Assembly (NCBI GenBank): GCA_022842585.1
Contig: JALHPI010000001.1
Location: 2,298 to 66,297, forward strand
Length of the DNA stretch: 64,000 bases
From: Minisyncoccota bacterium
GTDB lineage: Bacteria > Patescibacteriota > Minisyncoccia > Phycocordibacterales > Phycocordibacteraceae
Direction: 5' to 3'
How positions within the stretch are numbered: the first letter of the stretch is position 1; the number at the start of each line of letters is the position of its first letter. Below, one piece after another: positions 4,834 through 42,747 of this stretch. The notes beneath the pieces were generated by a model, which did not search any database, was not told where the DNA came from, and saw only the letters and a list, made by a program, of their open reading frames with translations. The position numbers and the translations under genes are program-made.

Positions 4834-4839
4834 GGTGAA

Positions 4840-7570: not shown

Positions 7571-7577
7571 GCTAGCG

Positions 7578-7789: not shown

Positions 7790-7832
7790 AAACGCGAGCT
7801 GTGGATAACTCGCGCGTTTTTTATTTTATTTT
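7790..7832 (-). terminator. Intrinsic terminator downstream of murB (CGCGAG-N10-CTCGCG, then a T-run on both strands).
   Basis: Hairpin at 7793-7814. The plus strand follows with TTTTTTATTTTATTTTTTT; the minus strand follows with TTTTTTTTATGC. Confidence 0.55.
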
Positions 7833-7842
7833 TTTATAAAAA

Positions 7843-11027: not shown

Positions 11028-11054
11028 ATAGCAGAGACTATACCATTGGTTCCC

Positions 11055-12665: not shown

Positions 12666-12685
12666 ATAAAGGTGTGAATAGTATA

Positions 12686-12763
12686 CGCCCCTTTCCCGAA
12701 GGGATTGGAAGTACTCTTGGGGTGCGCCCCTTCGCCGAAGGCGTTGGAGGTACTCTTGGGGTG
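12686..12763. repeat. Two tandem 39-bp direct repeats (34 of 39 positions identical) in the divergent promoter region
   Basis: Unit A (12686-12724) is CGCCCCTTTCCCGAAGGGATTGGAAGTACTCTTGGGGTG. Unit B (12725-12763) is CGCCCCTTCGCCGAAGGCGTTGGAGGTACTCTTGGGGTG. Each unit contains a CCCGAAGGG/GCCGAAGGC mini-palindrome. Confidence 0.8.
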
Positions 12764-12793
12764 CCGTGCACGCGGGCGCGCTATACTGCCCCC

Positions 12794-13243
12794 ATGCCCG
12801 ATTATCTCCTCAAGTGGAATGCCCGCATTGAAGCCCTGTTAGGGGCTGGCACCTATCGTCTTCTCCGGTATCTCATTTCCGGCGGGACTGCTGCGGCGAG
12901 CAACGTTCTCTTCCTGTTCCTGCTCGTGCATTTCGCCGTTATCCACTATCTCCTTGCTTCGGTCATCGCCTTTCTCATGTCGGCCGTCGTGTCGTTCACC
13001 ATGCAAAAGTTCTGGACGTTCCAAGATACGGTCATGAAGAATCTGCGTACGCAATTTGGCCGATACCTCATAGCGCTCCTTACTAATCTCTGCGTGAATA
13101 CCCTGCTTATGTATCTCTTCGTCGAGAAGATGGGCATGTGGTATGTGTACGCACAGATACTCACTACCGCCATAGTCGCGGTCATTGGCTACTTCATCTA
13201 TAAATATTTCGTATTCCGCGCGAGGCCCATCGCGTTGCCATGA
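12794..13243 (+). CDS. gtrA: GtrA-family membrane protein (polysaccharide synthesis, flippase-associated)
   Basis: 149 aa with four TM helices and the GtrA-like pattern YLISGGTAAASNVLFLFLLV...FTMQKFWTF. The listed ORF starts at 12674, but that N-terminal extension is just the tandem-repeat DNA read as protein. Confidence 0.65.
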   Translation: MPDYLLKWNARIEALLGAGTYRLLRYLISGGTAAASNVLFLFLLVHFAVIHYLLASVIAFLMSAVVSFTMQKFWTFQDTVMKNLRTQFGRYLIALLTNLCVNTLLMYLFVEKMGMWYVYAQILTTAIVAVIGYFIYKYFVFRARPIALP

Positions 13244-14535
13244 TTCAGTTACGCACGTACAAAATCGAGATTGCGCTTTTTATACTTGCGCTTGTCGCGC
13301 ACCTCGCCTGCTTCTGGCTCGTAACAAACGCAAGCGGAAGCATTCTCGACGCGGTGCGCGCCGATGATGGCTTCTATGAGCTTGCGCAGAACATCCGCGC
13401 GGGAAACGGGTTCTCGTGGAGCGCTGAGGCACCGTATCTACCAAATCCACTTCGCACCCCCGGCTATCCCTTCGTGCTTGCTGGACTTATAAGCGTCTTC
13501 GGCGTGGCCGGTGCCGCACTCATCCAAGTCGTTCTCGCTTCCCTTCTGCCGGTGCTCGGGTATATGATTGCGCGCACTATCGCCCGCTCACGTGCTATCG
13601 CTATTGGTACGGGCGTCATACTCGCTCTTGATCCAACCCTCGCACTCCTTTCGTTCCAGTTCTATACCGAGACACTGTTCCTTCTCCTGTTTTTCCTCTG
13701 GATAATCCTGTCCCTCCGCTATTTGGAGAAGCGTGACCTTGTATCGCTTATCGTGGGTGCCGTCTTGCTCGGTACTGCGATACTGGTGCGAGCAAGCGCC
13801 CAGTATCTTCCCCTCCTCTTCGCGCTCTTCATCCTGTGGCAATGGAGGAGCAAAGACGTTAAGCAAGGTGCGCTCCATGCAGGCATCTACGTGCTTATAG
13901 TCGGGGCGATACTCGCGCCCTGGATACTGCGCAATGTAGAGATTTACGAGACCCCTGGTCTCTCCGCGCAAACCCCGTTCGTGCTCTATACAAATCTCGC
14001 ACCCGCGGTGATAAGCGTCGCCGAAGGAAGGGTCTTTGCTGAAGTAGTGGATACCTTTTTAACCGAGGAAGAATTCAAGGGAAATGCCATCACCCTTGCA
14101 AACGGTACCGAGTACACGGCGCAAGCGCTCGATGTCGTGCATACCTATCCTGCCGCTACCCTCGTTGTTGCCGCAAAGTCACTCTTCACTTTCTTCACGA
14201 ATGATGGCGTGTATACCTTGCTGGTGCGCATCGGTCTTAATCCGGACGACTTCTTCTCTACACTCGTCATCGCACGGCTCGTATGGATTGCCATCACGCT
14301 TGCAGCATTCTTAGGTGCGCTTGTATATCTCTATAAAGAGCGCTCGTCGCGCGCCGTATTCCTCATCCTTCTCATCGGCTACTTCGCGCTCACGAGTACT
14401 ATCGCCGCGTTTGGCACCAACCCGCGCTACCGACTTCCCGTTGACCCCATCATCCTCGCGTTTGCGGGACTTGGTGGCATGTATCTTTTTGCGTATGGTA
14501 AAAAGATTCTAAAATTCACACGCCAACAGCCATGA
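13240..14535 (+). CDS. GT39/ArnT-like (PMT_2) polyprenyl-phosphate-sugar-dependent glycosyltransferase, polytopic membrane protein
   Basis: 431 aa. Multiple TM helices with an early luminal loop (DAVRADDGFYELAQNIRAGNGF) typical of ArnT/PMT-family GT-C enzymes. Overlaps gtrA by 4 nt (ATGA). Confidence 0.6.
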   Translation: MIQLRTYKIEIALFILALVAHLACFWLVTNASGSILDAVRADDGFYELAQNIRAGNGFSWSAEAPYLPNPLRTPGYPFVLAGLISVFGVAGAALIQVVLASLLPVLGYMIARTIARSRAIAIGTGVILALDPTLALLSFQFYTETLFLLLFFLWIILSLRYLEKRDLVSLIVGAVLLGTAILVRASAQYLPLLFALFILWQWRSKDVKQGALHAGIYVLIVGAILAPWILRNVEIYETPGLSAQTPFVLYTNLAPAVISVAEGRVFAEVVDTFLTEEEFKGNAITLANGTEYTAQALDVVHTYPAATLVVAAKSLFTFFTNDGVYTLLVRIGLNPDDFFSTLVIARLVWIAITLAAFLGALVYLYKERSSRAVFLILLIGYFALTSTIAAFGTNPRYRLPVDPIILAFAGLGGMYLFAYGKKILKFTRQQP

Positions 14536-18679: not shown

Positions 18680-19846
18680 TTACTCATACTCCATCCATAC
18701 CCGACGGCGGACGTAATCAGTATAGCCAAGGATGATACGAGCAACTTTCTTGGAAACATTAGGCATAGAATAATCACTCACTAACCGGAACGGGCGCTCT
18801 GGGTTGGCGTGTCTCATCGCGAGCGCGACTGACTGCACGATTCGTTCCGGTGAGACGCTCGCCATAATAACGCTTGCCTCGTCGGACGCTTCTGGGCGCT
18901 CGTGTGCTTCACGTATCATCACGGCCGGTAAGTTCAAGATTGATGCCTCCTCACTAATAGTCCCGCTATCTGAAATAACGCACGCCGCATTCAATTGGAG
19001 TTTCTGATAGTCATGAAAACCGAGTGGTTTAATAAACCGAAGCTTTTCAGATGTATCAATGCCGCGCTCGTCAATGCGTTTTTTCGTTCGCGGATGGGTC
19101 GAAATGATAACGGGCATACCGTATTCGTCGGCTACACGCGTCAAACCTTCGATAATTCCATCAAGTGCACGATTGTTTGTAATATTCTCTTCACGATGGA
19201 AGCTTGCAACGAAGTATTTACCCATCTCGACGTTAAGGGTCAAAAGAATGGACGACGCGTCGATGGCGTCCTTATTCACTGCAAGTACCTCGAAAAGCGG
19301 TGAACCGGTCTTAATGACGCAGTCCGGTGGCATATTTTCACGAAGAAGGTAGTCGCGTGCGCGGTCGCTATATACCAGATTGATATCACTCATATGGTCG
19401 ACGATGCGTCGATTGATCTCTTCAGGCACTCTTTGGTCAAAGCAACGGTTCCCTGCCTCCATATGAAACGTGGGTATTTTGCGACGCTTCGCGGCGTAGA
19501 GCGCTAAAGCGCTGTTTGTATCCCCTAAGACGAGCACTGCATCCGGCTTCTCTTTTTCAAGTACCTCATCTGCTTTTGCGATAACTTGCGCGACGGTCTG
19601 CGCGGCTGTCTCGCCTGCTGCGGCGAGAAAGTAATCAGGTTTGCGAAGACCGAGGTCTTGGAAAAAGATCTCGTTCAACTCGTAGTCATAGTTCTGTCCC
19701 GTATGGACAAGTACGTGGGTTGTCGTCGCATCAAGCTCCTTAATCACTTCCGAGAGGCGAATGATTTCTGGCCGTGTGCCAAGAATCGTTACTACTTTTA
19801 TGCTCTTAGACGGGTTCATAGTACGTGTCAGGGTCGTTCGAATCAT
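18680..19846 (-). CDS. UDP-N-acetylglucosamine 2-epimerase (non-hydrolysing), WecB/FnlC-like
   Basis: 388 aa. Classic signature VVTILGTRPEIIRL...HTGQNYD...VLGDTNS. Confidence 0.85.
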   Translation of the reverse strand: MIRTTLTRTMNPSKSIKVVTILGTRPEIIRLSEVIKELDATTTHVLVHTGQNYDYELNEIFFQDLGLRKPDYFLAAAGETAAQTVAQVIAKADEVLEKEKPDAVLVLGDTNSALALYAAKRRKIPTFHMEAGNRCFDQRVPEEINRRIVDHMSDINLVYSDRARDYLLRENMPPDCVIKTGSPLFEVLAVNKDAIDASSILLTLNVEMGKYFVASFHREENITNNRALDGIIEGLTRVADEYGMPVIISTHPRTKKRIDERGIDTSEKLRFIKPLGFHDYQKLQLNAACVISDSGTISEEASILNLPAVMIREAHERPEASDEASVIMASVSPERIVQSVALAMRHANPERPFRLVSDYSMPNVSKKVARIILGYTDYVRRRVWMEYE

Positions 19847-20903
19847 ATTGCTCGCTTATCCAAAATACTGCAAGCATCTCATCACTTCCTGTGTTCGTAA
19901 TGTTGTGGGTCCAATATGACGGCATATCAATAACGACCGGTTGTTCGCCTGAGACATCATATACTCGAGTTTCATTTGTAAGGAGCTTACGCAAAGTGAT
20001 CTGAGCATTCCCTCGTATCACGCAGAAGCGTTCAAACTTATGAGTATGGTAGTGGTTTCCGCGCGTCGCGCCAGGGATAGTCGTTGAGAAGAATACTTGA
20101 TCTGGTTTATTGCTTCTCACAATTTCAAATAAGTTTCCTTGCTCACTCGGTTTTATCTCAAGTTTCCGAGGAAACATAACAGGAAACAAGTGTGAGTGAA
20201 GCGTCATGAATAATGCCCGCTCAAAAGAATTGTTCAATGTTGGCATGACGCCGTTTTGGTACTGATCTGCCTGTGACCTCAACATCTCATACACGGTTGC
20301 AAGTCCAATTGAACGCCCTTCAATTCGTGTAAGACCGCCCTCTTTGTTCAACAGGTCGATGACATGACGAGCGACGTCTCGTGCGTGGATAAGCTCAACC
20401 TGTGCGTCGGGATTAATTTCTGACGGAAGGTTATGTGCAATCTGGTGACAGAGTGTTGCAACGGCAGAGTTATAGAACGGCTTTGCAAATTCACCAAAGA
20501 TATGGGGCAGGACCATAATAGAAACTCGTGCGTCATTTTCCTTACCCCATGCCTCAAGAATATCTCCCGCCTCTTTTTTTGATGTACCGTACATGGTGTC
20601 GCGCTCAATATGAGTCGATGATGCGAAAACGATGTGCGGCTTTACTCCTTCGCACGCCAAGACAAGCGTGCGTGCAAGCCCGATATTTGTCTTGTACATT
20701 TCAGCATCATCTCCCCGATTCATGCCGGCAAGGTGAATTATTGCATCGCAAGACTCGAGACGCGCACGAAGATCTTCTACCTGCTCAAATGCGTCTTTGG
20801 GAACTACGACAACCGTGTGTTCACCTCGTTCCTGATACGGCAAGAGATAAAACCGGATGTGCTGACCAAGAAACCCTTCTGCGCCTGTTATAGCAATCTT
20901 CAT
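19806..20903 (-). CDS. CapF/FnlB/WbjC-like bifunctional reductase. N-terminal SDR and C-terminal cupin. UDP-L-FucNAc pathway step 2.
   Basis: 365 aa. MKIAITGAEGFLGQ Rossmann N-terminus and a C-terminal cupin-like domain (NHYHTHKFERFCVIRGNAQI). Located between the FnlA-like and WecB-like genes. Confidence 0.65.
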   Translation of the reverse strand: MKIAITGAEGFLGQHIRFYLLPYQERGEHTVVVVPKDAFEQVEDLRARLESCDAIIHLAGMNRGDDAEMYKTNIGLARTLVLACEGVKPHIVFASSTHIERDTMYGTSKKEAGDILEAWGKENDARVSIMVLPHIFGEFAKPFYNSAVATLCHQIAHNLPSEINPDAQVELIHARDVARHVIDLLNKEGGLTRIEGRSIGLATVYEMLRSQADQYQNGVMPTLNNSFERALFMTLHSHLFPVMFPRKLEIKPSEQGNLFEIVRSNKPDQVFFSTTIPGATRGNHYHTHKFERFCVIRGNAQITLRKLLTNETRVYDVSGEQPVVIDMPSYWTHNITNTGSDEMLAVFWISEQYDSNDPDTYYEPV

Positions 20904-21904
20904 GCACGCAATCGTAGCTCTTCCTGGATGTACGGAAGCGTGAGCAGAAATTCCTTAACCTCTGGCACCGTAAGCTGTTGCGTTGTGTTTGATGCGTAGT
21001 GCTCCTTTTCCGGTAAGTCTGTACCTCCTTCCTCAAAGTACTTTTGATAATCAAACGTTCTATCGGTACGAACACGGTAATACCCACCGAGATCTTCAGA
21101 ATTCATTACTTCGAGATTATGCGCGAGTATCTCATGAATCTTCTCACCCTCTCTGATACCAACGGTCGTAATCGGCTCTGACGATCCAAAGAGTTCTTTG
21201 ATTGCCGTAGCAAGATCCTGGATGGTTGCTGCAGGAGATTTCTTGATGAAGATATTGCCCTGTTCACCTTTATCAACCGCAAGTTCAACTAGGTCTACCG
21301 CATCATCAAGTGACAATAAAAAACGAGTCATATATGGAACAGTTATTGGAAGCGATTTACCCGCCTTAATGCATTCGACAAAAAGAGGAATGACGGACCC
21401 GCGCGAGGCTGCGACATTACCATAGCGCACTGCAGAAAACACGGTATTGCGTGCAATACGCGAGAATGCCGTCATCGTCTTCTCTGCAAGTGCCTTTGAC
21501 ATACCCATGGCATTCACAGGATGCACTGCTTTGTCGGTACTTAAGAAGATAACGCGTCCAACTCCCACATTCTCCGCTACATCGGCAATATTATGTGACC
21601 CAAGGATATTAGTCTTTACCATCTCCCACGGGAAAAACTCACCCGTTGGCACCTGCTTAAGTGCCGCCGCATGAAATACGACATCAATTCCACGAAAGTG
21701 GTGCCAGAGAACATCGCGTTCGCGTATATCACCAACAACAAAGGTTAGTTTTGTATTGTCGCGAAACGCATTTCGCATATCGTGTTGTTTTTTTTCATCA
21801 CGACTGAAGACAATTACTTGTTCTACATCGGTTCGGCTGAGAAAACGTTCGACCGCTGCGTGGCCGAACGAACCTGTACCACCTGTGACAAGAATACGTG
21901 TCAT
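20900..21904 (-). CDS. UDP-GlcNAc 4,6-dehydratase/5-epimerase (FnlA/CapE/WbjB-like; CapD polysaccharide biosynthesis family)
   Basis: 334 aa. ILVTGGTGSFG...FSRDEKKQHDM...STDKAVHPVNAMGMSKALAEK (inverting dehydratase family motifs). Confidence 0.75.
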   Translation of the reverse strand: MTRILVTGGTGSFGHAAVERFLSRTDVEQVIVFSRDEKKQHDMRNAFRDNTKLTFVVGDIRERDVLWHHFRGIDVVFHAAALKQVPTGEFFPWEMVKTNILGSHNIADVAENVGVGRVIFLSTDKAVHPVNAMGMSKALAEKTMTAFSRIARNTVFSAVRYGNVAASRGSVIPLFVECIKAGKSLPITVPYMTRFLLSLDDAVDLVELAVDKGEQGNIFIKKSPAATIQDLATAIKELFGSSEPITTVGIREGEKIHEILAHNLEVMNSEDLGGYYRVRTDRTFDYQKYFEEGGTDLPEKEHYASNTTQQLTVPEVKEFLLTLPYIQEELRLRA

Positions 21905-21915
21905 ACGATTGGCGA

Positions 21916-22506
21916 CTATGATTCCAGGAATTTGATCGCGTCTATCATCTGAACGTGCGGATCAATGTCGGTAATAGTCGTGTGACGCTGTTTATTGCTC
22001 ATAGTGTAGTCACGAACCAAGACCTTGTAGCCGAGTTTCTCGAATTCCTCTGGCTCCCATGCCGAACGGTGCGTCTGCCAATGATCTCCGCCATACCCAA
22101 GTATGTCTATGTCCTGAGGGATATGTCCACGCGGGTTCTCAGATATGACCGCTTTGCGGGCTATCTCCTCACACTGACGCAAAAGTTCGAAGCCTTCGTC
22201 CTTCTCAAGGTGCTCGATGATATCGCAGCCGATGACGAGATCGAAGCTTTTCGGCATGAAAATCTCGTTCAATTTAGGCACATCGTACTTCACGGTGACG
22301 TACGGCACGTCCGACTCGATATGCTTGAAATATTCATCATAGATGTCGACGCCGACGCGTATTTGCGCAGGAATGTACTTTGATTTAAGTGAGAGGCCGC
22401 ATGCAACGTCAAGCACGGAGACTATCTCTCCTTCCTTCCACGGCCATAGGTTAGCGCGCGTGAAAATATTCTGGATGCTGTTTTCCTTCCAATCCTCTTT
22501 TGACAT
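21916..22506 (-). CDS. Class I SAM-dependent methyltransferase
   Basis: 196 aa. Motif I VLDVACG and an acidic post-I motif. Confidence 0.55.
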   Translation of the reverse strand: MSKEDWKENSIQNIFTRANLWPWKEGEIVSVLDVACGLSLKSKYIPAQIRVGVDIYDEYFKHIESDVPYVTVKYDVPKLNEIFMPKSFDLVIGCDIIEHLEKDEGFELLRQCEEIARKAVISENPRGHIPQDIDILGYGGDHWQTHRSAWEPEEFEKLGYKVLVRDYTMSNKQRHTTITDIDPHVQMIDAIKFLES

Positions 22507-22988: not shown

Positions 22989-23516
22989 CTAGCTGCCGTG
23001 AATCGTGCGCAGGTGCTCCACGCTCGGCGCCTGATGGCGCACGAACGCGTCGGGAAGCTGATCGAGCGGACAGAACATCCGTTCGACGCCATCCACCAGC
23101 ACCGCAGGATCATCGAGCCTGAGAACGTGCTGGAACAGACGATAGGCCTCTTGGCCACGCGGGCTCGAATCGCGCCCGGCAGGACCCATGAGGATATCGC
23201 GCGCCAGCAGGAACTCCGGCTCGCCCGTGAGACTCACACCCACGTCGGGCTTCAGCACACGCTTCTCTAAGGTCGAGAGCGCGGTTTCTCCGGGGAGGAT
23301 GATGGCCCCGGGGATGTGCCACAGCCCCGCGAAGAACGGGTCCGAGCGAGGCCGCTTGGTGAGCAGCACCTCGGCACGGCCTCCGCCCTTCTGGATGATT
23401 GCTAGGTCGACGCTCGGCAGGACGGTCTTCCGCGCGAGCGCATAGAAGATGTCCGGAGGCACTGGCCACTCGAGCTTGCCGAGAAGAGCGAGGAACGCTT
23501 CATTATTAAAGGACAA
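22989..23516 (-). CDS. Hypothetical protein with a Nudix-like fold and a degenerate Nudix box. Gene of elevated GC (about 63%).
   Basis: 175 aa. Nudix-like pattern GAIILPGETALSTLEKRVLKPDVGV, with EE replaced by KP. GC is clearly higher than in neighbours, producing overlapping shadow ORFs on both strands. Confidence 0.4.
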   Translation of the reverse strand: MSFNNEAFLALLGKLEWPVPPDIFYALARKTVLPSVDLAIIQKGGGRAEVLLTKRPRSDPFFAGLWHIPGAIILPGETALSTLEKRVLKPDVGVSLTGEPEFLLARDILMGPAGRDSSPRGQEAYRLFQHVLRLDDPAVLVDGVERMFCPLDQLPDAFVRHQAPSVEHLRTIHGS

Positions 23517-23590: not shown

Positions 23591-24607
23591 CTAAAGCGTT
23601 TCTGCGCGTCCCTCGAGGAGAACACGCCTTCCCTCTCTGGCCGATACACGCATCGCTTCCAAGACCTTTGCTTGGCGCAGAATGCGTTCATACATATCTG
23701 AGAACTTCTTTTCGTCTCGCTTTGCAACGGCATTAGTAAAGTATTCAAAACTCAGAGCAAACTGGTTTGCGGCGGGCACCGCAACTGTTTCAAGCATATC
23801 TTTCGTACCATCATTCGTTACCAACTCCACCGTAGGTACAAAGGTCGGCGGGAGCGCAAACGCACGATTCGTGCGCACGATACCTTTAGAGCCCCATACC
23901 GAGTATTGGTTCTGATAGAGGTGATTGAAGCCAAAGGACATATGCGCCGTTCCCTTCGGAAACTCAAACAGTGCAGAGCCTGCAATATCAACCTCGTGCC
24001 CGTCATTGGAAAGCGTACAGGTTACAGCCACGGGTTCTTGCTGCAGTATTTTCCGCGCCATAAAGGCGGTATAGCAGCCGGCGTCATTTAATGCTCCGCC
24101 CTTCAAATCTCTACGGTAGCGGATGTCACCATCCGGAAAGGGCGGAAAGCCGTATACGCCATGCCACACCTGCGGCACCCCGATCTTTCCATTCTCAATG
24201 AGAGAGAGGATTTCTTGATGCTGGGGATGGAATTCTGGAACGAAATTCTCATAGAGCGCCACACCATTTTCTTTACATGCATCCACCATACGCTTCGCAG
24301 ACTCGAGACTATACGTAATCGATTTCTCACAAATGACATGCTTGCCAGCCGCTGCGGCTTTCAGAGCCCACTCTTCCTGCAATCCGACGGGAAGCGGGCT
24401 GTAGAGGACATCGATGTCGTCACGTCGGATGAGCGAATCGTAGGTTTCGGCTTCAAGACTGTGGCGTTCCGCGGCAGCGCGCGCCTTTTCCTCGCTCCGG
24501 CTCGCAATAGCGACGAGCTCGACTCCCGAGAGCGACTTGAACGCGGGGATGCCATAGCGCTCCGCTATCTGAGATACCCCGAGGATGCCGACGCGGACCT
24601 TGTTCAT
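23591..24607 (-). CDS. Gfo/Idh/MocA-family NAD(P)-dependent oxidoreductase, candidate NDP-sugar 3-ketoreductase (KijD10/TylC1-like role)
   Basis: 338 aa. N-terminal Rossmann VGILGVSQIAERYGIPAF and an EKS-like catalytic region (ICEKSITYS). Confidence 0.6.
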   Translation of the reverse strand: MNKVRVGILGVSQIAERYGIPAFKSLSGVELVAIASRSEEKARAAAERHSLEAETYDSLIRRDDIDVLYSPLPVGLQEEWALKAAAAGKHVICEKSITYSLESAKRMVDACKENGVALYENFVPEFHPQHQEILSLIENGKIGVPQVWHGVYGFPPFPDGDIRYRRDLKGGALNDAGCYTAFMARKILQQEPVAVTCTLSNDGHEVDIAGSALFEFPKGTAHMSFGFNHLYQNQYSVWGSKGIVRTNRAFALPPTFVPTVELVTNDGTKDMLETVAVPAANQFALSFEYFTNAVAKRDEKKFSDMYERILRQAKVLEAMRVSAREGRRVLLEGRAETL

Positions 24608-25242
24608 AGGAGTGCGCAGACGTTCCGGGCAAGCGAGTTCATCGCGAGGTCGACGCGCAGGAGCGCCTGTATCTGCGGAAGCGTGAGCCAGATATAATCC
24701 TCCGTAATAGGTACCTCTTCCGTCTCATCCACCTCCACGAGCACGGAGCGGTTCACCTTGTGATAGAAGCGACCGCCATCCTCGACGCCCTCAACAGACT
24801 CGACGAGCGTGCCCTTCGTCCCGTCGAAATATTCCGCGAGTCGCGGACGCTTCCCCTTATGCGCGAGCGAGAGATTCCCTTCGGACGCCTGGCATGCAGG
24901 CGAGATCTGAAGCATGCCCTTGTTTCCCGGCTCGAACTTCGCATAGAAGAGGTAATGCATGACGCCGGCGCGCTTCTGCATGAGTACGCCCGAAATGCCT
25001 ATTTCCTCTTGTTTCAGCATCGGCTGACTCCAGGAGGCCACCTCGCGGTCTTCGGCACCGGTAACCTTCACACCTATGACCGAGAAGAACTTCCCGGATT
25101 CATGCACGATGTTCCCGGTAGCGGGTTCCGTCTTCCATCCTTGCGCCTCGTTGACCCCCACCTCCTCGACCGTCACCGGATAGAGGGCTCGGCGCTCCTC
25201 GAGCCACGTCAGTATCGGCTGTATATCGACGTGTTCGTTCAT
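24604..25242 (-). CDS. Single-domain NDP-hexose 2,3-dehydratase-like protein (EvaA/TylX3 family, half-size)
   Basis: 212 aa. Motifs recalled from the EvaA family: GKFFSVIGVKV, WSQPMLKQEEIGISGVL, YAKFEPGN..LQISPACQASEGN, GRFYHKVNRSVLVEV. Canonical enzymes carry two such domains (about 470 aa). Confidence 0.45.
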   Translation of the reverse strand: MNEHVDIQPILTWLEERRALYPVTVEEVGVNEAQGWKTEPATGNIVHESGKFFSVIGVKVTGAEDREVASWSQPMLKQEEIGISGVLMQKRAGVMHYLFYAKFEPGNKGMLQISPACQASEGNLSLAHKGKRPRLAEYFDGTKGTLVESVEGVEDGGRFYHKVNRSVLVEVDETEEVPITEDYIWLTLPQIQALLRVDLAMNSLARNVCALL

Positions 25243-26468
25243 ACGATTTCAACGTTAGGGATAGGGATGATGAACTTCGCCCCTCTATCGCGGAGTTCCT
25301 GTTCTTTGGTAAGGATGAAGTCTCGATAGTTCCATGCCAGTAATAAAAGATAATCAGGCGTTTCTGTTTTGAGTATGTCGGGAGACCGTACTGGTATGTG
25401 GCTTCCAGGCGTAAGCTTCCCCACCTTATAAGGCGTCGTATCAGTTACGTACGCAATATCTTCTGCGGTGAAGCCACAGAAGTTAAGGAGGGTGTTCCCT
25501 TTTGCAGGAGCGCCATAGGCGGTCACCACCTTGCCTTCTTTTCGGAACCCACGCACAAGCGAGACAAGCTTGTCCTTAATCGCTTCGGCCTCGTTCTGGA
25601 AATCAGCAAACCGCGCGAGACTATGAAGCCCTGCCTGCTCTTCAAGAAGGAGCAGTGCTTGCACGCTCTCTGTGACCTGCTCCCCTGTCTTCCGGCGCGC
25701 ATACACTCGTATGGAACCACCATGAACGGTAACGCGACGTACATCACATACCTCCATGTCAAAGCGCGCAAAAAGATGTTGAAGTGGCTTCACGCTGTAA
25801 TAGCAGAGGTGCTCGTGGTAGACGGTATCAAACTCCATATGCTCTACAAGATCCAGAAGGTAGTGTGATTCGGTGACGAACACGCCGTCGTCTGCGAGAA
25901 GTTCTTTCACTCCAAGAATTATTTCATCAACGTTATCGATATGCGCAAAGACATTGTTTGCTGAAATGACCTTTGCTTTTCCGTGCGAAGCGACGATCTG
26001 ACGCGCCATCTCAACCGTGAAGAACCCATCAAGGGTTTCCACTCCTTTTTTGCGCGCTTCTTCAGCCACATTCGCCGACGGCTCAATACCAAGCACGCGA
26101 TACTTCTCCACGAAGTTCTGCAGGAGGATGCCGTCGTTGCTGCCGATATCAACGACTAAATCGCCTTCGGTAAGCTGTTCTTTCTTGAGGTCGTCGGCAT
26201 AGGAACGGAAGTGATCAACGAGCGGTTTTGAAGCCGAAGAGAAATACGCATAGTCTCCATGAAAAAGCTCTTCTTCAGCAACCACATCAAGAAGCTGCAC
26301 GAGGTTGCAAGTACCACAAAAATACACCTCAAGCGGGTAGCGCTTTTCGTCTTTGATATGTTCTGCGTCAGTAAAGTTATCTACCGGCGGATGTTCCCCA
26401 AGCGAGAGGATACGCGTGAGGTCGGTACCTTTGCAAACGCGACAAGTTGTCTTATGGACGTGGCTCAT
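25239..26468 (-). CDS. NDP-hexose C-methyltransferase (TylC3/KijD1-like; N-terminal Zn-ribbon plus a SAM-MTase)
   Basis: Cys4 ribbon CRVCKG...CGTC, then VVDIGSNDG motif I. The start is chosen at the MSHVHK ATG (26468) because the longer listed ORF (to 26612) would overlap the upstream gene by 122 nt. Confidence 0.65.
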   Translation of the reverse strand: MSHVHKTTCRVCKGTDLTRILSLGEHPPVDNFTDAEHIKDEKRYPLEVYFCGTCNLVQLLDVVAEEELFHGDYAYFSSASKPLVDHFRSYADDLKKEQLTEGDLVVDIGSNDGILLQNFVEKYRVLGIEPSANVAEEARKKGVETLDGFFTVEMARQIVASHGKAKVISANNVFAHIDNVDEIILGVKELLADDGVFVTESHYLLDLVEHMEFDTVYHEHLCYYSVKPLQHLFARFDMEVCDVRRVTVHGGSIRVYARRKTGEQVTESVQALLLLEEQAGLHSLARFADFQNEAEAIKDKLVSLVRGFRKEGKVVTAYGAPAKGNTLLNFCGFTAEDIAYVTDTTPYKVGKLTPGSHIPVRSPDILKTETPDYLLLLAWNYRDFILTKEQELRDRGAKFIIPIPNVEIV

Positions 26469-26490
26469 GGAATATAAAGGAGTATACCAA

Positions 26491-27312
26491 TTACGCCCAC
26501 TCGGTAGCGAGATACTCCGAAAGCGCCTCTTTCCACGGACGAAGGTGTATCTTCTCTGACACCACCGCTTCATTTGCGGGCAAAGTGACGCCTGCGAAGT
26601 GACTTCTATCAACTGCGCGCACTGGTGTGTTTACCCCAAGCTCTTTAGCGAGCGCTTCGGCGAGCTCAAATCGTGACGCCGAGCCTGCGTTTGTGATATG
26701 AAAAATGCCTTCCTTGCCTGTGGTAAGCAGGTCCTTTATTGCTTCAACATAGTCTTTGGCGTAGGTAGGTGAACCCTGTACATCGTTCAAGGCGACAATG
26801 TCGGAGTCCCCCGCCCGCAGCTTCCCGAGCATTTTTCCATAGAACTTGGTGTCGCGTAGAGGACCACCGCCAAACACCCACGCCGTGCGAGCGATGATGG
26901 CGCGTGGGGCGGTAGCGGCTACGACTTCTCCCAGATATTTTGTCAGACCATACTTCGTTGTCGGTTCCGGTATATCGCTCTCGGTGTACGGACCTTCCTT
27001 ATCTCCTTTAAACACACGAGAGGTGGAAGCATATACGAGTGTCGCTCCCGTCACGCGCGCCGCACGCACCGCGTTATACACGCCGCGCACGTTTAATTCA
27101 TACGCATATAACGGATCGCTCTCGCATGTTTGTGTGTCGGTGGCTCCGGCGAGATAGATGATTGCGCTTGGTTGACACTCCTCGACATACCGCATAACCG
27201 CGTCTTCATCCAACACATCCAATTCTTCGTGCGTTGGTCGCATGCCAAAATCAACATACCTCCCAATCATTCCGCCCGCGCCAAGCGTGAGTACGCGATC
27301 AAGCGAGATCAT
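26491..27312 (-). CDS. dTDP-4-dehydrorhamnose reductase-like NDP-sugar 4-ketoreductase (RmlD family)
   Basis: 273 aa. VLTLGAGGMIGRYV Rossmann and a Y-x3-K catalytic dyad region (TKYGLTKYLGE). Confidence 0.7.
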   Translation of the reverse strand: MISLDRVLTLGAGGMIGRYVDFGMRPTHEELDVLDEDAVMRYVEECQPSAIIYLAGATDTQTCESDPLYAYELNVRGVYNAVRAARVTGATLVYASTSRVFKGDKEGPYTESDIPEPTTKYGLTKYLGEVVAATAPRAIIARTAWVFGGGPLRDTKFYGKMLGKLRAGDSDIVALNDVQGSPTYAKDYVEAIKDLLTTGKEGIFHITNAGSASRFELAEALAKELGVNTPVRAVDRSHFAGVTLPANEAVVSEKIHLRPWKEALSEYLATEWA

Positions 27313-28055
27313 AGTCCTCTCTTTGCAATTTCAATGGAGACTTTATGGAGCGAATCAAACGTGCCAGCGTCAGACCAGAGCCCTTTGATAATCCCGTGCG
27401 AAAGTTTGCCTTTATCGAGATACGCGTTATTCGCATCCGTGATTTCAAGCTCCCCGCGCCCTGATGGCTTCAATGTTTTGATAATGGTGAATATCTCATT
27501 GTCATAGACATAGAAGCCGGTCTGAGCGAACTTAGACTTCGGCTTCTTCGGCTTCTCTTCAATGCGCACAATCTTCTTCCCCGACTTATCAAAAACGGGC
27601 ACTCCGAATCGATGCGGATTCTCCATGCGCTTGAAGAACACCTTGGCGCCCTCCGTGAAAGAAGCGATGTCTTTGCTAAAATCCTGTTCAAAGATATTGT
27701 CACCGAGAATAACGGCAACCGGTAACCCTTGGGAGAAATCTTCCGCATGACTGAGCGCGTCTGCGATACCGCCGTTGTTCGTGTTTTGGATGGCATACGA
27801 ACATTTGACGCCGTACTCGTGCCCTGAGCCCAAAAACTGCATGAAGTGCCCCGCATGTTCGCGGCCGGTGACGACCATAATGTCGGTAATACCTGCCTTT
27901 TTGAGCGTCTCGAGAGGATACAGAATCATCGGCTTGTTATAGACCGGAAGGAGGTGCTTGTTCGTGATGAGCGTCAGAGGGCGCAGGCGGGTACCAAACC
28001 CCCCTGCGAGGATAACCCCCTTCATCGCTACTTTTTTATCTGATGTTTTCGCCAT
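27309..28055 (-). CDS. rmlA: Glucose-1-phosphate thymidylyltransferase (short form)
   Basis: 248 aa. GVILAGGFGTRLRPLT signature. Confidence 0.8.
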   Translation of the reverse strand: MAKTSDKKVAMKGVILAGGFGTRLRPLTLITNKHLLPVYNKPMILYPLETLKKAGITDIMVVTGREHAGHFMQFLGSGHEYGVKCSYAIQNTNNGGIADALSHAEDFSQGLPVAVILGDNIFEQDFSKDIASFTEGAKVFFKRMENPHRFGVPVFDKSGKKIVRIEEKPKKPKSKFAQTGFYVYDNEIFTIIKTLKPSGRGELEITDANNAYLDKGKLSHGIIKGLWSDAGTFDSLHKVSIEIAKRGL

Positions 28056-29119
28056 AAGTCTATATGCGGATTAAAGACACCCGTCTTCCGACGCACTTTC
28101 TCCACCCACGCCGGATTATCAATATACCACTGCACGGTTTCCGTGAACGCCTCCTCAAAGTTATGAGTTGGCGCCCAGCCAAGCTCTTTCTTTATGAACG
28201 AAGCGTCTATCGCGTACCGGCGGTCGTGCCCCGGGCGGTCGGAGACAAATTCAAGCATGTTCTTTCCCTTACCAAAGTAGCCAAGGATGCGGTGGGCAAT
28301 CTCACGGTTATTAAGCTCATTATCAGCACCTATGTTGTACACGGCACCAGGGGTGCCTTTAAGGAGACAGAGCTCGAGCGCTTTACAGTGGTCGAGTACA
28401 TAAATCCAATCGCGCACGTGGTTGCCGTCGCCGTAGAGAGGAAGCGTTTTTCCTTCAAGCATGCGGAGCACAAAGAACGGAATGAGCTTCTCTGGGTACT
28501 GGCGGGGGCCATAATTATTGGAGCAGTGCGTCACCACCACCGGTACCCCCCACGTATTGTGATACGCGCGACACAGCATATCGCCCCCAGCTTTGGTCGC
28601 GGCATACGGCACGTTCGGTGCAAATGCGGTGTCTTCGGAGAAGAGAGCCTTTGACTTCAAATCAAGCGAACCGTACACCTCGTCGGTTGAGACTTGTACG
28701 AACGATTGCACGTTCCCGGACGCTTTCACCGCCTCAAGGATATTGAACACGCCGGTGACATTCGTATTGATGAACTCGAGCGCGCCCACGTGAATACTGC
28801 GGTCGACATGCGTCTCTGCTGCAAAGTTAATAACGTAGTCAGGTTGATATTTCTTAAATGCGGCAGTGATTGTTTTTTGGTTTGCGATGTCACCTTTTAT
28901 AAACGTGTAACGCGCATCCTTTGCATAGTCGCGTAGATTGTCCTGATTGCCCGAATACGTGAGCTTATCGAGATTCACGACACTCACCTTGGGGTACTTT
29001 CCGAGGATGTGGCGTATGAAGTTGGAGCCGATGAATCCGGAGCCGCCGCACACGAGTATTGTCTTCTTGTTAAGCGAAGCCTCCGACGGGGTCCGTGCTC
29101 GCGTCGCTTTTTTTGCCAT
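28028..29119 (-). CDS. rmlB: dTDP-glucose 4,6-dehydratase
   Basis: 363 aa. ILVCGGSGFIGSNF, a FAAETHVDRS-like segment and YAATKAGGDML (YxxxK). Confidence 0.85.
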   Translation of the reverse strand: MAKKATRARTPSEASLNKKTILVCGGSGFIGSNFIRHILGKYPKVSVVNLDKLTYSGNQDNLRDYAKDARYTFIKGDIANQKTITAAFKKYQPDYVINFAAETHVDRSIHVGALEFINTNVTGVFNILEAVKASGNVQSFVQVSTDEVYGSLDLKSKALFSEDTAFAPNVPYAATKAGGDMLCRAYHNTWGVPVVVTHCSNNYGPRQYPEKLIPFFVLRMLEGKTLPLYGDGNHVRDWIYVLDHCKALELCLLKGTPGAVYNIGADNELNNREIAHRILGYFGKGKNMLEFVSDRPGHDRRYAIDASFIKKELGWAPTHNFEEAFTETVQWYIDNPAWVEKVRRKTGVFNPHIDLWRKHQIKK

Positions 29120-29131
29120 AGTGAGCTGATT

Positions 29132-30061
29132 CTATACTTCCTCCTGCACGATGTAAATCGGGCGTTTTTTGACCTCCTCAAACGTCTTGCCGAGATACAG
29201 CGCTACCACGCCAAGCATGGTGGAAAGAAAGCCAAAAATAAGCCAGAGCGAAGCGAGTAGGAACGCAAACGGACTCACTGCAATTCCCATAAATCCTTGT
29301 ATGAGAAGATATGCGGCATATAGGACGGCAAGAAACGTAACGACGATTCCTAATTTCACAATGAGCCGTAGAGGTCCTTCCGAGTATGCAAGGATGATAT
29401 CGGTCGCAAGCGAGAAGAGTTTCGCGAGCGAATACCCTGACTTCCCTCCTTTGCGCGGCGCGTGTTCTACCGGTACCTGCGCGGTGCGAAACCCTACCCA
29501 ACGCACCATGACGGAGAAATACCGCATGTGATCTCGCAGTGAGAGGACCGCATCGATAACCTTCCGATGATAGATGCCGAAGTTCGCCACCGTGCGATCC
29601 TGGTACCTTCCCGACAAATAACTGAGCGTCGCATAAAACGCGCGCGAGACGAAGGAGCGCACCAAGCCGTCATGACGCTTCTGACGGGAACCGACGACGA
29701 CGAAGTACCCTTCCTGCGCTTTCGTATACATCTGTTCTATTTCTTCCGGCTGGTCCTGCAAATCACAATCCATCACCACTACCCATTCGCCCCTGCTTGC
29801 CGCAAGCCCTGCGGTCAACGCTGGATACTGGCCGAAGTTGCGGGAGAGATTGATACCGCGGACGCGGGAATCTTTTTGTGCGAGTTTCTGTATCACCTGC
29901 CACGCGTTATCGGGACTCGCATCATTCACGAGGATGAGTTCGAATTCGGACGTTATCTTCTCTACGGTCGCTACCACTCGCAGGTGGAGCTCGTTGAGAG
30001 CATCGTCAGAACCATACACGGGAACAACCACCGATATCTTTGGCTTCCCCGCTTGTTGCAT
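29132..30061 (-). CDS. GT2 polyprenyl-phosphate sugar synthase (GtrB/DPM1-like) with C-terminal TM helices
   Basis: 309 aa. ISVVVPVYGSDDAL...LILVNDASPD...VVMDCDLQD, plus two C-terminal TM helices. Confidence 0.75.
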   Translation of the reverse strand: MQQAGKPKISVVVPVYGSDDALNELHLRVVATVEKITSEFELILVNDASPDNAWQVIQKLAQKDSRVRGINLSRNFGQYPALTAGLAASRGEWVVVMDCDLQDQPEEIEQMYTKAQEGYFVVVGSRQKRHDGLVRSFVSRAFYATLSYLSGRYQDRTVANFGIYHRKVIDAVLSLRDHMRYFSVMVRWVGFRTAQVPVEHAPRKGGKSGYSLAKLFSLATDIILAYSEGPLRLIVKLGIVVTFLAVLYAAYLLIQGFMGIAVSPFAFLLASLWLIFGFLSTMLGVVALYLGKTFEEVKKRPIYIVQEEV

Positions 30062-33947: not shown

Positions 33948-34803
33948 GGTCGTTTCCGTACACTCTTTCTAATAGTTCTACATCTTTTTCGGACTGAGTG
34001 AGTAATGCATTATTTTTACGCACCAGTGCACTAAGCAACGCGTCTCCCTCCGTATCCTCAGTCTTCTTATACAACTGGCGAAACGCCTCCATGTCCTTTA
34101 TGAAACAATCGCCGCCGGCTCCTCTTCCTTTCTTATCGGTATGCCCGCTTGCGTCCACCGGGAATAAGTGGGAGGCACCGATGCGTGGGTCGGAAGCAAG
34201 CGCCTCGCGCACTGTCTCGTAGTCGACACCAAGCGTATGCGCAAGATCGTAGAAAAGATTGGCGAGCACCACTTTATTCGCGAGAAACACGTTGCCCGCA
34301 TACTTCGTGAGCTCAGCCGCACGCGACGGCATGATGTTTGTATACGGCGCTTTTGCGCAAACCGAGAGTACGAGCTCTGCGGCGTCTTGATGGAGCGCAT
34401 CCTCTTCGGGTATACCGATAAGCGTACGGGTAGGGTGCGACGCGTCATGTGCCGCATGCTTTTCGCGCAAGAACTCGGGGGAACATAGCACGATGCGGTC
34501 ATGGAATTCTTTCTGGAGCGACTCGGTAGTGCCCGGAAGAAGCGTTGATTTCACCACCGCAATCTTTCCCGTGCCAACCAATGGAATGACGGCACGCACG
34601 ATAGAGGCATCGAAGCCGTCTTTGGTCGTAGGAGTGGGTACGGCGACGAATACGATGTCGCAGGTTGCTATCGCCTCTTTGTTTTGCGCGTACGGTGCCT
34701 CAAGGGCATAGCGCACGACCGTATATCCGCGCGCCTCGAAATCATTGGCGTAGTTCTTCCCTATCCAGCCCTGTCCGATGAATCCTATGGTCGGCTTTTT
34801 CAT
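33931..34803 (-). CDS. Nucleotide-sugar dehydrogenase (UDP-glucose/GDP-mannose dehydrogenase family). Short form lacking the C-terminal UDP-binding domain.
   Basis: 290 aa. GFIGQGWIG, VFVAVPTP, VVKSTLLPGTT, CSPEFLREK, KYAGNVFLANKV and the catalytic GGDCFIKD. Ends about 100 aa before a canonical enzyme would. Confidence 0.65.
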   Translation of the reverse strand: MKKPTIGFIGQGWIGKNYANDFEARGYTVVRYALEAPYAQNKEAIATCDIVFVAVPTPTTKDGFDASIVRAVIPLVGTGKIAVVKSTLLPGTTESLQKEFHDRIVLCSPEFLREKHAAHDASHPTRTLIGIPEEDALHQDAAELVLSVCAKAPYTNIMPSRAAELTKYAGNVFLANKVVLANLFYDLAHTLGVDYETVREALASDPRIGASHLFPVDASGHTDKKGRGAGGDCFIKDMEAFRQLYKKTEDTEGDALLSALVRKNNALLTQSEKDVELLERVYGNDHDVLS

Positions 34804-35768
34804 GAGAGCAGCGGCGCAAGCGCTTCGGCAAGTTTCTCCGGATCATGGCGCGCAAGCGAACGAGGCACGGGGTCTTCAGGCACGGGAGGCACCGCATGCA
34901 CGGAAGCAATAGCGGTACGAATAACGCGCACGTCGTCTCCTAAGTCATCCTCCACCGGTGCCTCCCCTTCCTGCTGGTACTTCTCAAGCACATCTTCATT
35001 AAACCCTCCATTCTTATGAACCAATATGACTTCGGGTTTTTTGCCTGCGTAGCGGGCAATTTCTGCAATATAGTCGGACGCATGCATGCCTCCGGTCTGT
35101 CCTGACTTCGTAAAGAGATTCATGATGTATATAAGCTTTGCATTGCTTTGCGCTATTGCTTCTTTGAAGCCATCGGCGATAAGAGGAGCGATGGATGATG
35201 CATAGAGGTCACCTGGACCAAGAATGATGACATCTGCTTCCGCTATCGCTTCTAGCACTGCAGAAGAAGCGGGTGTCGCTACCTCATACGAAATAGTATC
35301 GATACGCGCACGCTCTGGCGCATGCTCGTCAAGCCGGTTCTCTCCGCGAATAATCGACCCGTCCGCAAGCGTTGCAAGAAGCGTGGTAGGTACGTCCGTT
35401 GCCGGAATAACTCTTCCCGAGACGCGCAGAATCTTTGACGCTTCCTCAAGCGCTTTGGCGTCGGAGCCGAGCAAGTCAGTGAGCGCGGTAAGGAAAAGAT
35501 TGCCGAGGTTATGGCCTTTTATGTCACCTTTTGCGAATCGGTATGCGAATAAATCGCGAAGTACGGGACCATCCTCAGCGAGCGCGACGAGCGCTTGGCG
35601 TGCGTCGCCAAGCGGGAGGAATCCATACGCGTCCCGCAAACGACCGGTTGAACCGCCATCGTCCGCCGACGATACGATGGCGGAAAGCGAAAGGCCAGGG
35701 AGCCTGCGAAGTGCGGAGAGCACTACGAATGTGCCAGTTCCGCCCCCGATAGTGACAATCTTTTTCAT
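34800..35768 (-). CDS. YvcK/CofD-family protein (gluconeogenesis factor / 2-phospho-L-lactate-transferase-like, UPF0052)
   Basis: 322 aa. IVTIGGGTG and DDGGSTGRLR signatures. Confidence 0.7.
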   Translation of the reverse strand: MKKIVTIGGGTGTFVVLSALRRLPGLSLSAIVSSADDGGSTGRLRDAYGFLPLGDARQALVALAEDGPVLRDLFAYRFAKGDIKGHNLGNLFLTALTDLLGSDAKALEEASKILRVSGRVIPATDVPTTLLATLADGSIIRGENRLDEHAPERARIDTISYEVATPASSAVLEAIAEADVIILGPGDLYASSIAPLIADGFKEAIAQSNAKLIYIMNLFTKSGQTGGMHASDYIAEIARYAGKKPEVILVHKNGGFNEDVLEKYQQEGEAPVEDDLGDDVRVIRTAIASVHAVPPVPEDPVPRSLARHDPEKLAEALAPLLS

Positions 35769-42406: not shown

Positions 42407-42423
42407 GTCTCTAGTATACGACA

Positions 42424-42461
42424 GAGCAAAAGAAAACACGGCGAGCTTTTGGCTCGCCGTG
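42424..42461 (-). terminator. Intrinsic terminator for the 42490..42747 gene (CACGGCGAGC-TTTT-GGCTCGCCGTG, then a T-run on the minus strand)
   Basis: 10-bp stem. The minus strand follows with TTTTCTTTTGCTC. Confidence 0.6.
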
Positions 42462-42489
42462 TCCTCAGGCAAGTAGAGATTTCTTAGGT

Positions 42490-42747
42490 CTATGCGTGAG
42501 GTGCCCTGTCGGCGGCAATCACGCATGCAGCATGCCGCGTAAGGTAGAAGGCATCCGAGTCGTTCTGTTCGATTTGCGTAAGCTGACCGCGCGCGACGCG
42601 GTCGAACTCGCCTGCGGCGCAGTTCCGAAACAGCTCTTCGACATACGGATAGCCTTGTTCATCGATTCTTTTCAGCATCTCTGGATTTTGTATCTCCAGA
42701 TATGCTGCCGCAGTCGTAGGGTTAAATGGAAGGACGGTGGTAGCCAT
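42490..42747 (-). CDS. Hypothetical small protein (85 aa)
   Basis: ORF with its own downstream terminator; no recognisable motif. Confidence 0.4.
   Translation of the reverse strand: MATTVLPFNPTTAAAYLEIQNPEMLKRIDEQGYPYVEELFRNCAAGEFDRVARGQLTQIEQNDSDAFYLTRHAACVIAADRAPHA

Follow-up and report, generated by a model that had tools for sequence, protein, structure and literature searches.

A One-Domain Member of the EvaA Family of NDP-Hexose 2,3-Dehydratases in a Predicted Branched 2,6-Dideoxysugar Cassette of a Minisyncoccota Bacterium

EvaA from Amycolatopsis orientalis (PDB 4J7G/4J7H) and its homologues TylX3, OleV, Gra-orf27, SpnO, and MtmV are nucleoside diphosphate (NDP)-hexose 2,3-dehydratases of the family PF03559. 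EvaA alone among sugar 2,3-dehydratases has been studied structurally. It is, according to a 2022 review, the only well-characterized enzyme of this kind, with its active site in pocket A of the N-domain, where Glu139 and Glu190 are essential by mutagenesis; mutants of pocket B stay active, and this pocket is seen as a remnant of gene duplication (PMC8987622). Here, we analyze a 64,000-nucleotide stretch of DNA (positions 2,298 to 66,297 of contig JALHPI010000001.1, assembly GCA_022842585.1, from a Minisyncoccota bacterium; hereafter the window) in which a half-size protein of 212 amino acids (aa) stands in a compact sugar-biosynthesis cassette. Like EvaA, this protein belongs to PF03559, has a Nudix-like fold, carries both catalytic glutamates together with other invariant N-domain residues, and is partnered by a Gfo/Idh/MocA 3-ketoreductase. 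Unlike EvaA, which consists of two fused tandem domains of ~470 aa, it is a single domain; it unites in one chain a catalytic residue set and an Arg-Glu-Val motif that are split between the N- and C-domains of the fused enzymes, and the hosts of its relatives are bacteria of the candidate phyla radiation (CPR) and DPANN archaea, where it occurs in surface-glycan loci rather than in natural-product clusters.

The cassette resembles the thymidine diphosphate (TDP)-D-mycarose branch of the mithramycin pathway (MtmD, MtmE, MtmV, MtmC) in having the same enzyme logic and no epimerase, with MtmC as the closest solved relative of its methyltransferase, and it shares with the tylosin TDP-L-mycarose pathway (TylX3, TylC1, TylC3, TylK, TylC2) a 4,6-dehydratase, a 2,3-dehydratase, a 3-ketoreductase, a 3-C-methyltransferase, and a 4-ketoreductase. 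Unlike the tylosin set, it holds no 3,5- or 5-epimerase (TylK/RmlC-like cupin) among the open reading frames (ORFs) scanned. It also differs from both sets in that its 4-ketoreductase has the RmlD fold, and in that it is accompanied by no polyketide or aglycone genes but is instead joined to a polyprenyl-phosphate glycosyltransferase of family 2 (GT2), amid Wzx, Wzy, and glycosyltransferase family 4 (GT4) genes. The reading we prefer, with moderate confidence, is that the seven-gene operon at 23591–30061 makes an NDP- (most likely deoxythymidine diphosphate (dTDP)-) 3-C-methyl-2,6-dideoxy-D-hexose that is handed to a lipid carrier for surface glycosylation, and that its dehydratase is a one-domain homo-oligomer.

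The 212-aa protein matches PF03559 in a single copy that spans profile positions 3–203 of 203 at 192.6 bits (cutoff 25; E = 6.5e-57), which places it in the 2,3-dehydratase family, as an earlier note on this DNA had proposed. The same note had raised the possibility of a second domain hidden next to the gene by a frameshift or assembly error. The gene, however, is tied to its neighbors at both ends by ATGA start/stop overlaps (the methyltransferase stop upstream, the reductase start downstream) and its stop-to-stop frame is 214 codons. Both neighbors align end to end with solved homologues and are full-length; therefore, no second domain is concealed by a frameshift. Profile hidden Markov models (HMMs) trained on the N-domains and C-domains of fused enzymes (148 of each) and run on all six frames of the window likewise found no further PF03559-like stretch beyond the 212-aa gene, and together with the overlaps and the 214-codon frame this rules out a hidden second domain. 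The same protein with the same neighbors is present in four independent assemblies (SRR28154521–24), the 409-aa methyltransferase gene also having been called in an independent assembly. In comparisons with relatives, nonsynonymous divergence (dN) is 0.10–0.19, synonymous divergence (dS) is saturated, and dN/dS is ~0.06 where computable; the gene is under strong purifying selection. Because it is identical in four assemblies, recurs at the same length, has full-length flanking genes, and shows low dN/dS, the half-size gene represents a one-domain family that is conserved and under selection, and is neither an artifact nor a pseudogene.

EvaA is the only solved sequence relative of the 212-aa protein (E = 1.9e-62, 33–34% identity), and the protein is nearer to the N-domain of EvaA (136 bits) than to its C-domain (75.6 bits). 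An AlphaFold2 model computed from the family alignment (predicted local distance difference test score 92.8, predicted template modeling score 0.87) superposes on one EvaA domain, the top Foldseek matches being the four EvaA chains of 4j7g/4j7h (E = 1e-16 to 4e-18, query template modeling score (TMq) 0.86, root mean square deviation 2.1–3.1 Å). These are followed by NUDT5, ADP-ribose pyrophosphatases, and a GDP-mannose hydrolase, at TMq ~0.5 and 9–17% identity, all of which are one-domain homodimers with sites at the subunit interface. NUDT5, Escherichia coli ADPRase, and YffH are thus the next-best folds and share with the half-size dehydratase a one-domain architecture and the homodimeric arrangement that we propose for it, but, as hydrolases that carry the canonical Nudix box, they are not dehydratases. 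At the level of single residues, E104 (in FEPG) and E154 (in VEDGG) align with EvaA E139 and E190. Neither varies in an alignment of 46 single-domain and fused sequences, and the same is true of W36, H47, K102, H128, K162, and R165, among others. The catalytic “His/Glu” whose conservation the earlier note had proposed to check needs amending in that the essential pair of EvaA is Glu139 and Glu190 (PMC8987622), both of which are conserved here. Based on these alignments and the model, we place the 212-aa protein within the EvaA family as a true one-domain form, with predicted dehydratase activity.

A column-by-column comparison of 21 half-size proteins with the N- and C-domains of fused enzymes (148 sequences of each) separates two groups of residues. 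R66, E67, and V68 are conserved to 100, 100, and 95% in the half-size proteins and to 99, 99, and 89% in the fused C-domains, where no other motif of the supposed remnant is as well conserved as Arg-Glu-Val, whereas in the fused N-domains this region is deleted or variable, in a shorter segment. The half-size proteins also retain the N-type set (H47, F52, Q78, E80, K102, P105, Q112, N123, H128, G130, F139, and K162), which is degraded in the fused C-domains. In agreement with this mixture, they are the least differentiated group by cross-profile mean scores (223 against the N-profile and 198 against the C-profile, compared with 282 and 184 for fused N-domains and 140 and 224 for fused C-domains). 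Arg-Glu is retained as well by six separately encoded N-like halves (L037a/b, L039b, L046a/b, L052b) of the split enzymes described below, the exception among such halves being L050a, which reads HE at this position, as in fused N-domains; the three fused N-domains inspected alongside them are without Arg-Glu. We read this pattern as pointing to subfunctionalization after fusion, in which the N-domain would have kept the catalytic set and the C-domain would have kept Arg-Glu.

Because one chain carries both the otherwise N-only catalytic set and the otherwise C-only Arg-Glu(-Val), we propose that each active site is composite, combining the catalytic residues of one subunit with the Arg-Glu motif of the other. 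The one-domain dehydratase would then need neither a fused second domain nor one supplied by another gene. It would act as a homodimer or homotetramer resembling the pseudo-dimer of the fused enzymes, and such a homo-oligomer would hold two equivalent sites, compared with one active and one remnant pocket in EvaA. The conservation pattern thus argues for a homo-oligomeric half-size dehydratase, probably with composite active sites. In a neighbor-joining tree, all 100 of 100 bootstraps recover the half-size family as monophyletic and 88 of 100 group it with N-like domains, while its branch lies outside the fused N-domains in only 29 of 100, which is compatible with an ancestral as well as a secondarily reduced origin. 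A more far-reaching and distinctly tentative version, which we rate as possible but doubtful, is that the 212-aa form represents the undifferentiated pre-fusion dehydratase, a symmetric homo-oligomer with two composite sites, from which the fused EvaA types would be derived, their “remnant” C-domain being retained to give Arg-Glu to the sole surviving site; CPR and DPANN organisms would, in addition, put the branched 2,6-dideoxysugar, not known up to now outside antibiotics, on their surface by a lipid-linked or AglB route.

The earlier note had suggested comparing full-length and half-length versions in related genomes. A search for the half-size family returned at least 335 clusters, of which the best 120 are all 210–237 aa long and 74–100% identical, with Kaiserbacteria, Parcubacteria, Paceibacterota, and Patescibacteria as source names. 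A single half-size gene is likewise found in 27 GTDB species representatives (Parcubacteria/Kaiserbacteria-like bacteria and DPANN archaea; stop-to-stop 214–313 codons), with no second PF03559 copy within ±8 kb in any of them. Among the best 150 of 1469 PF03559 representatives, 148 are two-domain proteins and two are single-domain, in a ranking by whole-protein score that favors two-domain proteins because domain scores add. The fused form occurs in actinomycetes and in genomes of Bacteroidota, Verrucomicrobia, Spirochaetia, Lachnospiraceae, and Cloacimonadota; in the non-actinomycete loci, it is usually followed by a KijD10-like gene, and for many actinomycete loci no KijD10-like gene was detected within the fetched flank. 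Thus, the 2-deoxygenation pair is not confined to actinomycete antibiotic clusters, and the description of the mycarose-type gene logic in the earlier note as normally a hallmark of such clusters was overstated.

In a third architecture, the two halves are separately encoded, either flanking the reductase gene (L039, L046, and L052, from Omnitrophota and Uhrbacteria) or adjacent to each other (L037 and L050, one from a Planctomycetia metagenome-assembled genome (MAG) and one from another MAG). One of the halves is a diverged C-like protein without W36/H47 in L039 and L052, and both are N-like in L046 and L037. The single-gene family itself has two branches. The first is of the Kaiserbacteria type, includes the window, and comes with the seven-gene cassette; the second, 52–59% identical, comprises Jorgensenbacteria and archaeal MAGs, usually has no methyltransferase, and carries a conserved N-terminal extension of ~35 aa (MxxKEELLxFxxxxGY...; P0124, P0129; L021, L023, L026–L034) that is absent from the Kaiserbacteria-type proteins and from the fused enzymes. 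The L023 contig is truly archaeal; next to the cassette, it encodes a GTPase of the NOG1 type and the oligosaccharyltransferase STT3/AglB. At positions 3331–13025 of this locus, genes for a half-size dehydratase (66% identical to the window protein), a C-methyltransferase, and a KijD10-like protein adjoin rmlA, rmlD, a gene for an RmlC-like epimerase, and rmlB, AglB being encoded nearby, an arrangement that suggests inter-domain transfer and use of the sugar in N-glycans. The presence of a near-identical cassette in both domains suggests, more generally, that surface-glycan genes may be exchanged between CPR and DPANN episymbiont lineages.

The gene assignments in the window are collected in Table 1. 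Six minus-strand ORFs occupy 23591–29119, with ends exactly as in the earlier note, and overlap or abut one another; the six assignments made there hold, those of the RmlA-like and RmlD-like proteins at the level of the domain family. The conserved unit nevertheless extends beyond that six-gene set, since it also holds a seventh gene, for an ArnC/GtrB-like GT2, and the order GT2, RmlB, RmlA-like, RmlD-like, C-methyltransferase, half-size dehydratase, ketoreductase is kept in ~14 species.

Table 1. Positions and assignments of the cassette genes, of two candidate partner genes, and of the split dehydratases. Coordinates are those of the window, except where a locus is named.
Feature	Coordinates	Strand	Basis
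GT2 polyprenyl-phosphate glycosyltransferase, ArnC/PgfS/GtrB-like, 309 aa	29132..30061	-	PF00535 E 2.7e-29; two C-terminal transmembrane helices
RmlB, dTDP-glucose 4,6-dehydratase, 363 aa	28028..29119	-	TIGR01181 440.8 bits; PF16363 E 1e-77
Short RmlA-like glucose-1-phosphate nucleotidylyltransferase, 248 aa	27309..28055	-	PF00483 E 1.2e-56, full profile
RmlD-fold NAD(P)H reductase, putative 4-ketoreductase, 273 aa	26491..27312	-	PF04321 E 5.1e-52
Sugar 3-C-methyltransferase (MtmC/TylC3/KijD1/TcaB9 type), 409 aa from ATG at 26468	25239..26468	-	PF08421 + PF13489 + PF08484
Single-domain (half-size) NDP-hexose 2,3-dehydratase, 212 aa	24604..25242	-	PF03559 single copy, E 6.5e-57
KijD10/TylC1-type NDP-sugar 3-ketoreductase (Gfo/Idh/MocA), 338 aa	23591..24607	-	PF01408 + PF22725
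GtrA-family small membrane protein; candidate flippase partner of GT2, putative member of the system	12674..13243	+	PF04138 E 9.3e-22
PMT_2 (GT-C fold) glycosyltransferase; candidate extracytoplasmic transferase, putative member of the system	13240..14535	+	PF13231 E 1.2e-8
Split two-gene 2,3-dehydratases	L039 6189-8642; L046 5026-8618; L052 6225-8624; L037 9-1324; L050 8001-9272		

RmlB exceeds the NCBIfam equivalog cutoff of TIGR01181 (365.1 bits). The RmlA-like protein, which is shorter than a full RmlA of ~290 aa but has a complete NTP_transferase domain, scores 241.6 bits on the TIGR01207 rmlA model (cutoff 360.65) and covers positions 1–234 of its 286; its specificity for dTTP would follow from its RmlB partner. 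The RmlD-fold reductase belongs to PF04321, and its closest solved relatives are dTDP-4-dehydrorhamnose reductases (E = 1e-32). It remains below the rmlD equivalog cutoff (TIGR01214, 162.6 vs 224.05 bits) and is therefore treated as a 4-ketoreductase with a different substrate. The methyltransferase consists of a Zn-ribbon (PF08421, 71.7 bits; its four cysteines read CRVC...CGTC in the translation), an S-adenosylmethionine-binding domain (PF13489, 58.6 bits), and PF08484 (190.9 bits), and it aligns end to end with MtmC (4rv9, 340 bits), TcaB9 (293 bits), and KijD1 (292 bits). MtmC is the D-mycarose 3-C-methyltransferase of mithramycin. For the oxidoreductase, the choice lay between a KijD10-type 3-ketoreductase and a WbpB-type 3-dehydrogenase, and the former assignment, which the earlier note had favored, holds. 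KijD10 (3rbv) leads the solved relatives (E = 2.1e-58, 201 bits, residues 2–325 against 26–346), ~100 bits ahead of the next (97 bits, E = 1e-26), no WbpB-type entry ranks above KijD10 among the solved relatives, and the NCBIfam UDP-GlcNAc 3-dehydrogenase model scores 59 bits. Most of the single-domain, split, and non-actinomycete fused loci examined also have a KijD10-like relative within the fetched flank, as a rule immediately downstream of the dehydratase.

Taken together, these assignments outline a possible route to the sugar. The RmlA-like protein and RmlB would form dTDP-4-keto-6-deoxy-D-glucose, from which the 212-aa protein would strip the C2 hydroxyl by 2,3-dehydration, giving an unstable 3,4-diketo-2,6-dideoxy intermediate that the translationally coupled KijD10-type reductase would at once reduce at C3. 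The MtmC-type methyltransferase would then put the methyl branch on C3, and the RmlD-fold reductase would reduce C4, the sugar remaining in the D series without an epimerase. Neither an RmlC-type epimerase (PF00908), whose absence the earlier note had pointed out, nor an aminotransferase was found in the cassette or among the scanned ORFs of the window. No epimerase was seen between the cassette genes of relatives either, the ORFs inserted there having been left outside the scan against the profile library, and in L023, the archaeal locus, the cassette comes together with an RmlC-like gene. Because no epimerase or aminotransferase was found and MtmC is the closest solved methyltransferase, a dTDP-D-mycarose-like sugar is the probable product, with its D configuration predicted from this gene content.

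The GT2 is matched over its full length by the NCBIfam models for PgfS (214.6 bits) and ArnC (183.8 bits), in both cases under the equivalog cutoffs. It lies directly upstream of RmlB in ~14 species-level relatives (69–77% identity), and a 29–38% identical relative adjoins the half-size gene in the distant subfamily. In eight relatives, the KijD10-like gene is followed, 0.3–2.2 kb downstream, by an orthologue of the window's PMT_2 gene (54–63%). A GtrA orthologue (52–54%) adjoins the cassette in L005/L006, L012, L013, L016, L017, L018, and L025, and all three genes (GT2, GtrA, and PMT_2) are adjacent to the cassette in eight relatives. This set of a GT2 with C-terminal transmembrane helices, a GtrA protein, and a GT-C enzyme recalls the GtrA/GtrB/GtrC, ArnC/ArnT, and Streptococcus mutans Pgf systems, from which it would differ in using a dTDP branched 2,6-dideoxysugar as donor rather than UDP-Glc, UDP-GlcNAc, or UDP-Ara4FN, the link here being by synteny only. 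The ArnC/GtrB-like GT2 would move the sugar onto polyprenyl phosphate, and the GtrA/GT-C pair would flip the lipid-linked sugar and attach it outside the membrane; transfer by the GT2 to polyprenyl phosphate for surface glycosylation is, in our view, the probable fate of the product.

In line with the surface-glycan setting already recognized in the earlier note, the surrounding 35 kb form a glycan locus, with several GT4s, a Wzx-type flippase, a Wzy_C/tetratricopeptide repeat protein, FnlA/B/C-like genes, an asparagine synthase, and a fragment of a UDP-sugar dehydrogenase, in addition to the GtrA and PMT_2 genes. The FnlA/FnlB/FnlC-like genes are consecutive on the minus strand (18680–21904) and encode a Polysacc_synt_2 protein, a short-chain dehydrogenase/reductase (SDR) with Polysacc_synt_C, and a UDP-GlcNAc 2-epimerase, in the manner of a UDP-L-FucNAc-type route; near them lie a small methyltransferase gene (21916–22506) and the asparagine synthase gene (15742–17490). 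A CofD/YvcK-family gene (34800–35768, minus strand) stands amid the glycosyltransferases, and a VirD4/TrwB-like coupling ATPase (40769–42526, minus strand) edges the locus. A 175-aa ORF at 22989–23516 has, by eye, a degenerate Nudix box (G-x5-E-x7-KRVLKPDVGV, without the REx2EE glutamates).

The cassettes of relatives show further variation. In P0174 (351 aa), a half-size dehydratase is interrupted in frame by ~100 aa that look GIY-YIG-like by eye, and a free-standing ORF of similar appearance lies between the half-size and KijD10-like genes in L024 (8621–8931); nuclease sequences of the GIY-YIG type would appear to target this locus. An ORF of 255–364 aa, absent from the window, is inserted at differing positions of the cassette (L012 5924–6721, L016 5913–6767, L022 2966–3733, L009 4080–5174). 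A second sugar C-methyltransferase gene (34–39% identical) stands with one for an SDR epimerase/dehydratase in L005/L006 (15703–18374), L017 (13889–15958), and L011 (511–2781), and in L005 a small cupin is also present and a 2,3-dehydratase absent; such genes probably serve a C-methyl-6-deoxyhexose pathway of their own within the glycan locus.

Against the one-domain homo-oligomer, three other explanations of the half-size gene have to be weighed. One of them, in which a normal two-domain gene was truncated, decayed to a pseudogene remnant, or was broken in assembly, draws on the ~470-aa length of all characterized enzymes and on the fact that metagenome assemblies can break genes, but this explanation is already refuted by the four identical assemblies, the same length in the best 120 of at least 335 clusters and in 27 species, the full-length flanking genes that overlap both ends, the dN/dS of ~0.06, and the monophyly in 100 of 100 bootstraps, and we accord it a negligible probability. 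The half-size protein could, alternatively, be one half of a heterodimer, its partner being either the 175-aa ORF at 22989–23516 (minus strand), the only neighbor of Nudix type, or a diverged Nudix-type half from some other part of the genome. That split systems exist, with the order half, KijD10-like gene, half in L039, L046, and L052 and adjacent halves in L037 and L050, and that one partner in L039 and L052 is a diverged C-like half without the catalytic set, lends this some plausibility, as does the position of the 175-aa ORF, which has a Nudix domain (PF00293, E = 3.5e-5), directly downstream of the KijD10-like gene of the window. Neither BLASTP nor hhalign, however, detects any similarity between this ORF and the half-size family; the ORF is also absent from the cassette, with no synteny, in the relatives examined, and we rejected it as the missing half. 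Neither the 64-kb window nor the ±8-kb flanks in the 27 genomes hold a second PF03559-like sequence, and standalone C-like halves number only 27 proteins in a database of 5.8 billion sequences (none of the 27 is named as this lineage, most having no source name at all), too few to serve as partners for at least 335 half-size clusters. The half-size protein itself bears the C-type Arg-Glu, moreover, and needs no C-like partner to supply the motif. We regard the heterodimer as unlikely.

Slightly less probable again, in our estimate, is that drift has given the protein a different activity, with NDP-sugar hydrolysis, enol/keto tautomerization, and a 3,4-ketoisomerase-like reaction as candidates, or has left it as a non-catalytic binding subunit, such that the product would be a 3-C-methyl-6-deoxyhexose that keeps its 2-OH. 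Enzymes with the Nudix-like fold are functionally diverse, the dehydratase activity of the one-domain members is a prediction from sequence and model, and the second C-methyltransferase cassette of L005, which has no dehydratase, indicates that C-methyl-6-deoxyhexoses are made in the lineage. Such drift is difficult to reconcile, however, with the invariance in the half-size proteins of the EvaA catalytic glutamates and of essentially the whole N-domain invariant set, with a conserved element that is not the canonical Nudix hydrolase box, and with the recurrent coupling to a KijD10-type 3-ketoreductase, which would be without a substrate unless the 3-keto sugar is made. We thus continue to prefer the one-domain homo-oligomeric dehydratase, while noting several points that weigh against it and against the pathway built around it. 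The search for a partner covered the 64-kb window or ±8–10 kb per genome, such that a distant paralogue is possible, and the split systems with a diverged C-like partner (L039, L052) show that heterodimers occur in nature. R315/E316 of the EvaA C-domain (counted from the alignment), which belong to the segment NREKISW, may reach pocket A, as a composite site would have it, or may only line pocket B. The scores of the RmlA-like and RmlD-like proteins below their equivalog cutoffs leave the nucleotide carrier and the C4 stereochemistry unfixed; the pathway steps follow from family membership, with a tentative order of methylation and reduction and a tentative configuration at C3 and C4. In the window, finally, the GtrA and PMT_2 genes (12674–14535) lie ~15 kb from the GT2 gene, and other glycosyltransferases of the locus could use the sugar directly.

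CPR bacteria, with their tiny genomes, and DPANN archaea are uncultivated organisms that live attached to host cells. The half-size proteins carry automated labels such as “NDP-hexose 2,3-dehydratase family protein” or “oxidase EvaA”, and thus their family membership is not new; the new variant part is the one-domain architecture in a CPR/DPANN surface-glycan setting. We found no description of a one-domain or CPR 2,3-dehydratase in the searchable literature, which, with most subscription journals outside it, is weak evidence of novelty. A widespread one-domain form provides an experimental handle on the duplication/remnant hypothesis of EvaA and on the role of the fused C-domain, for which the composite conservation pattern predicts that Arg-Glu acts across the subunit interface. 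Being small and, as judged from the model, robustly folded, the half-size enzyme is also a candidate for glycodiversification toolkits. For the organisms themselves, the cassette would offer a first hint that mycarose-like branched 2,6-dideoxysugars, otherwise of the kind found in antibiotics, may be displayed on the surfaces of CPR bacteria and DPANN archaea.

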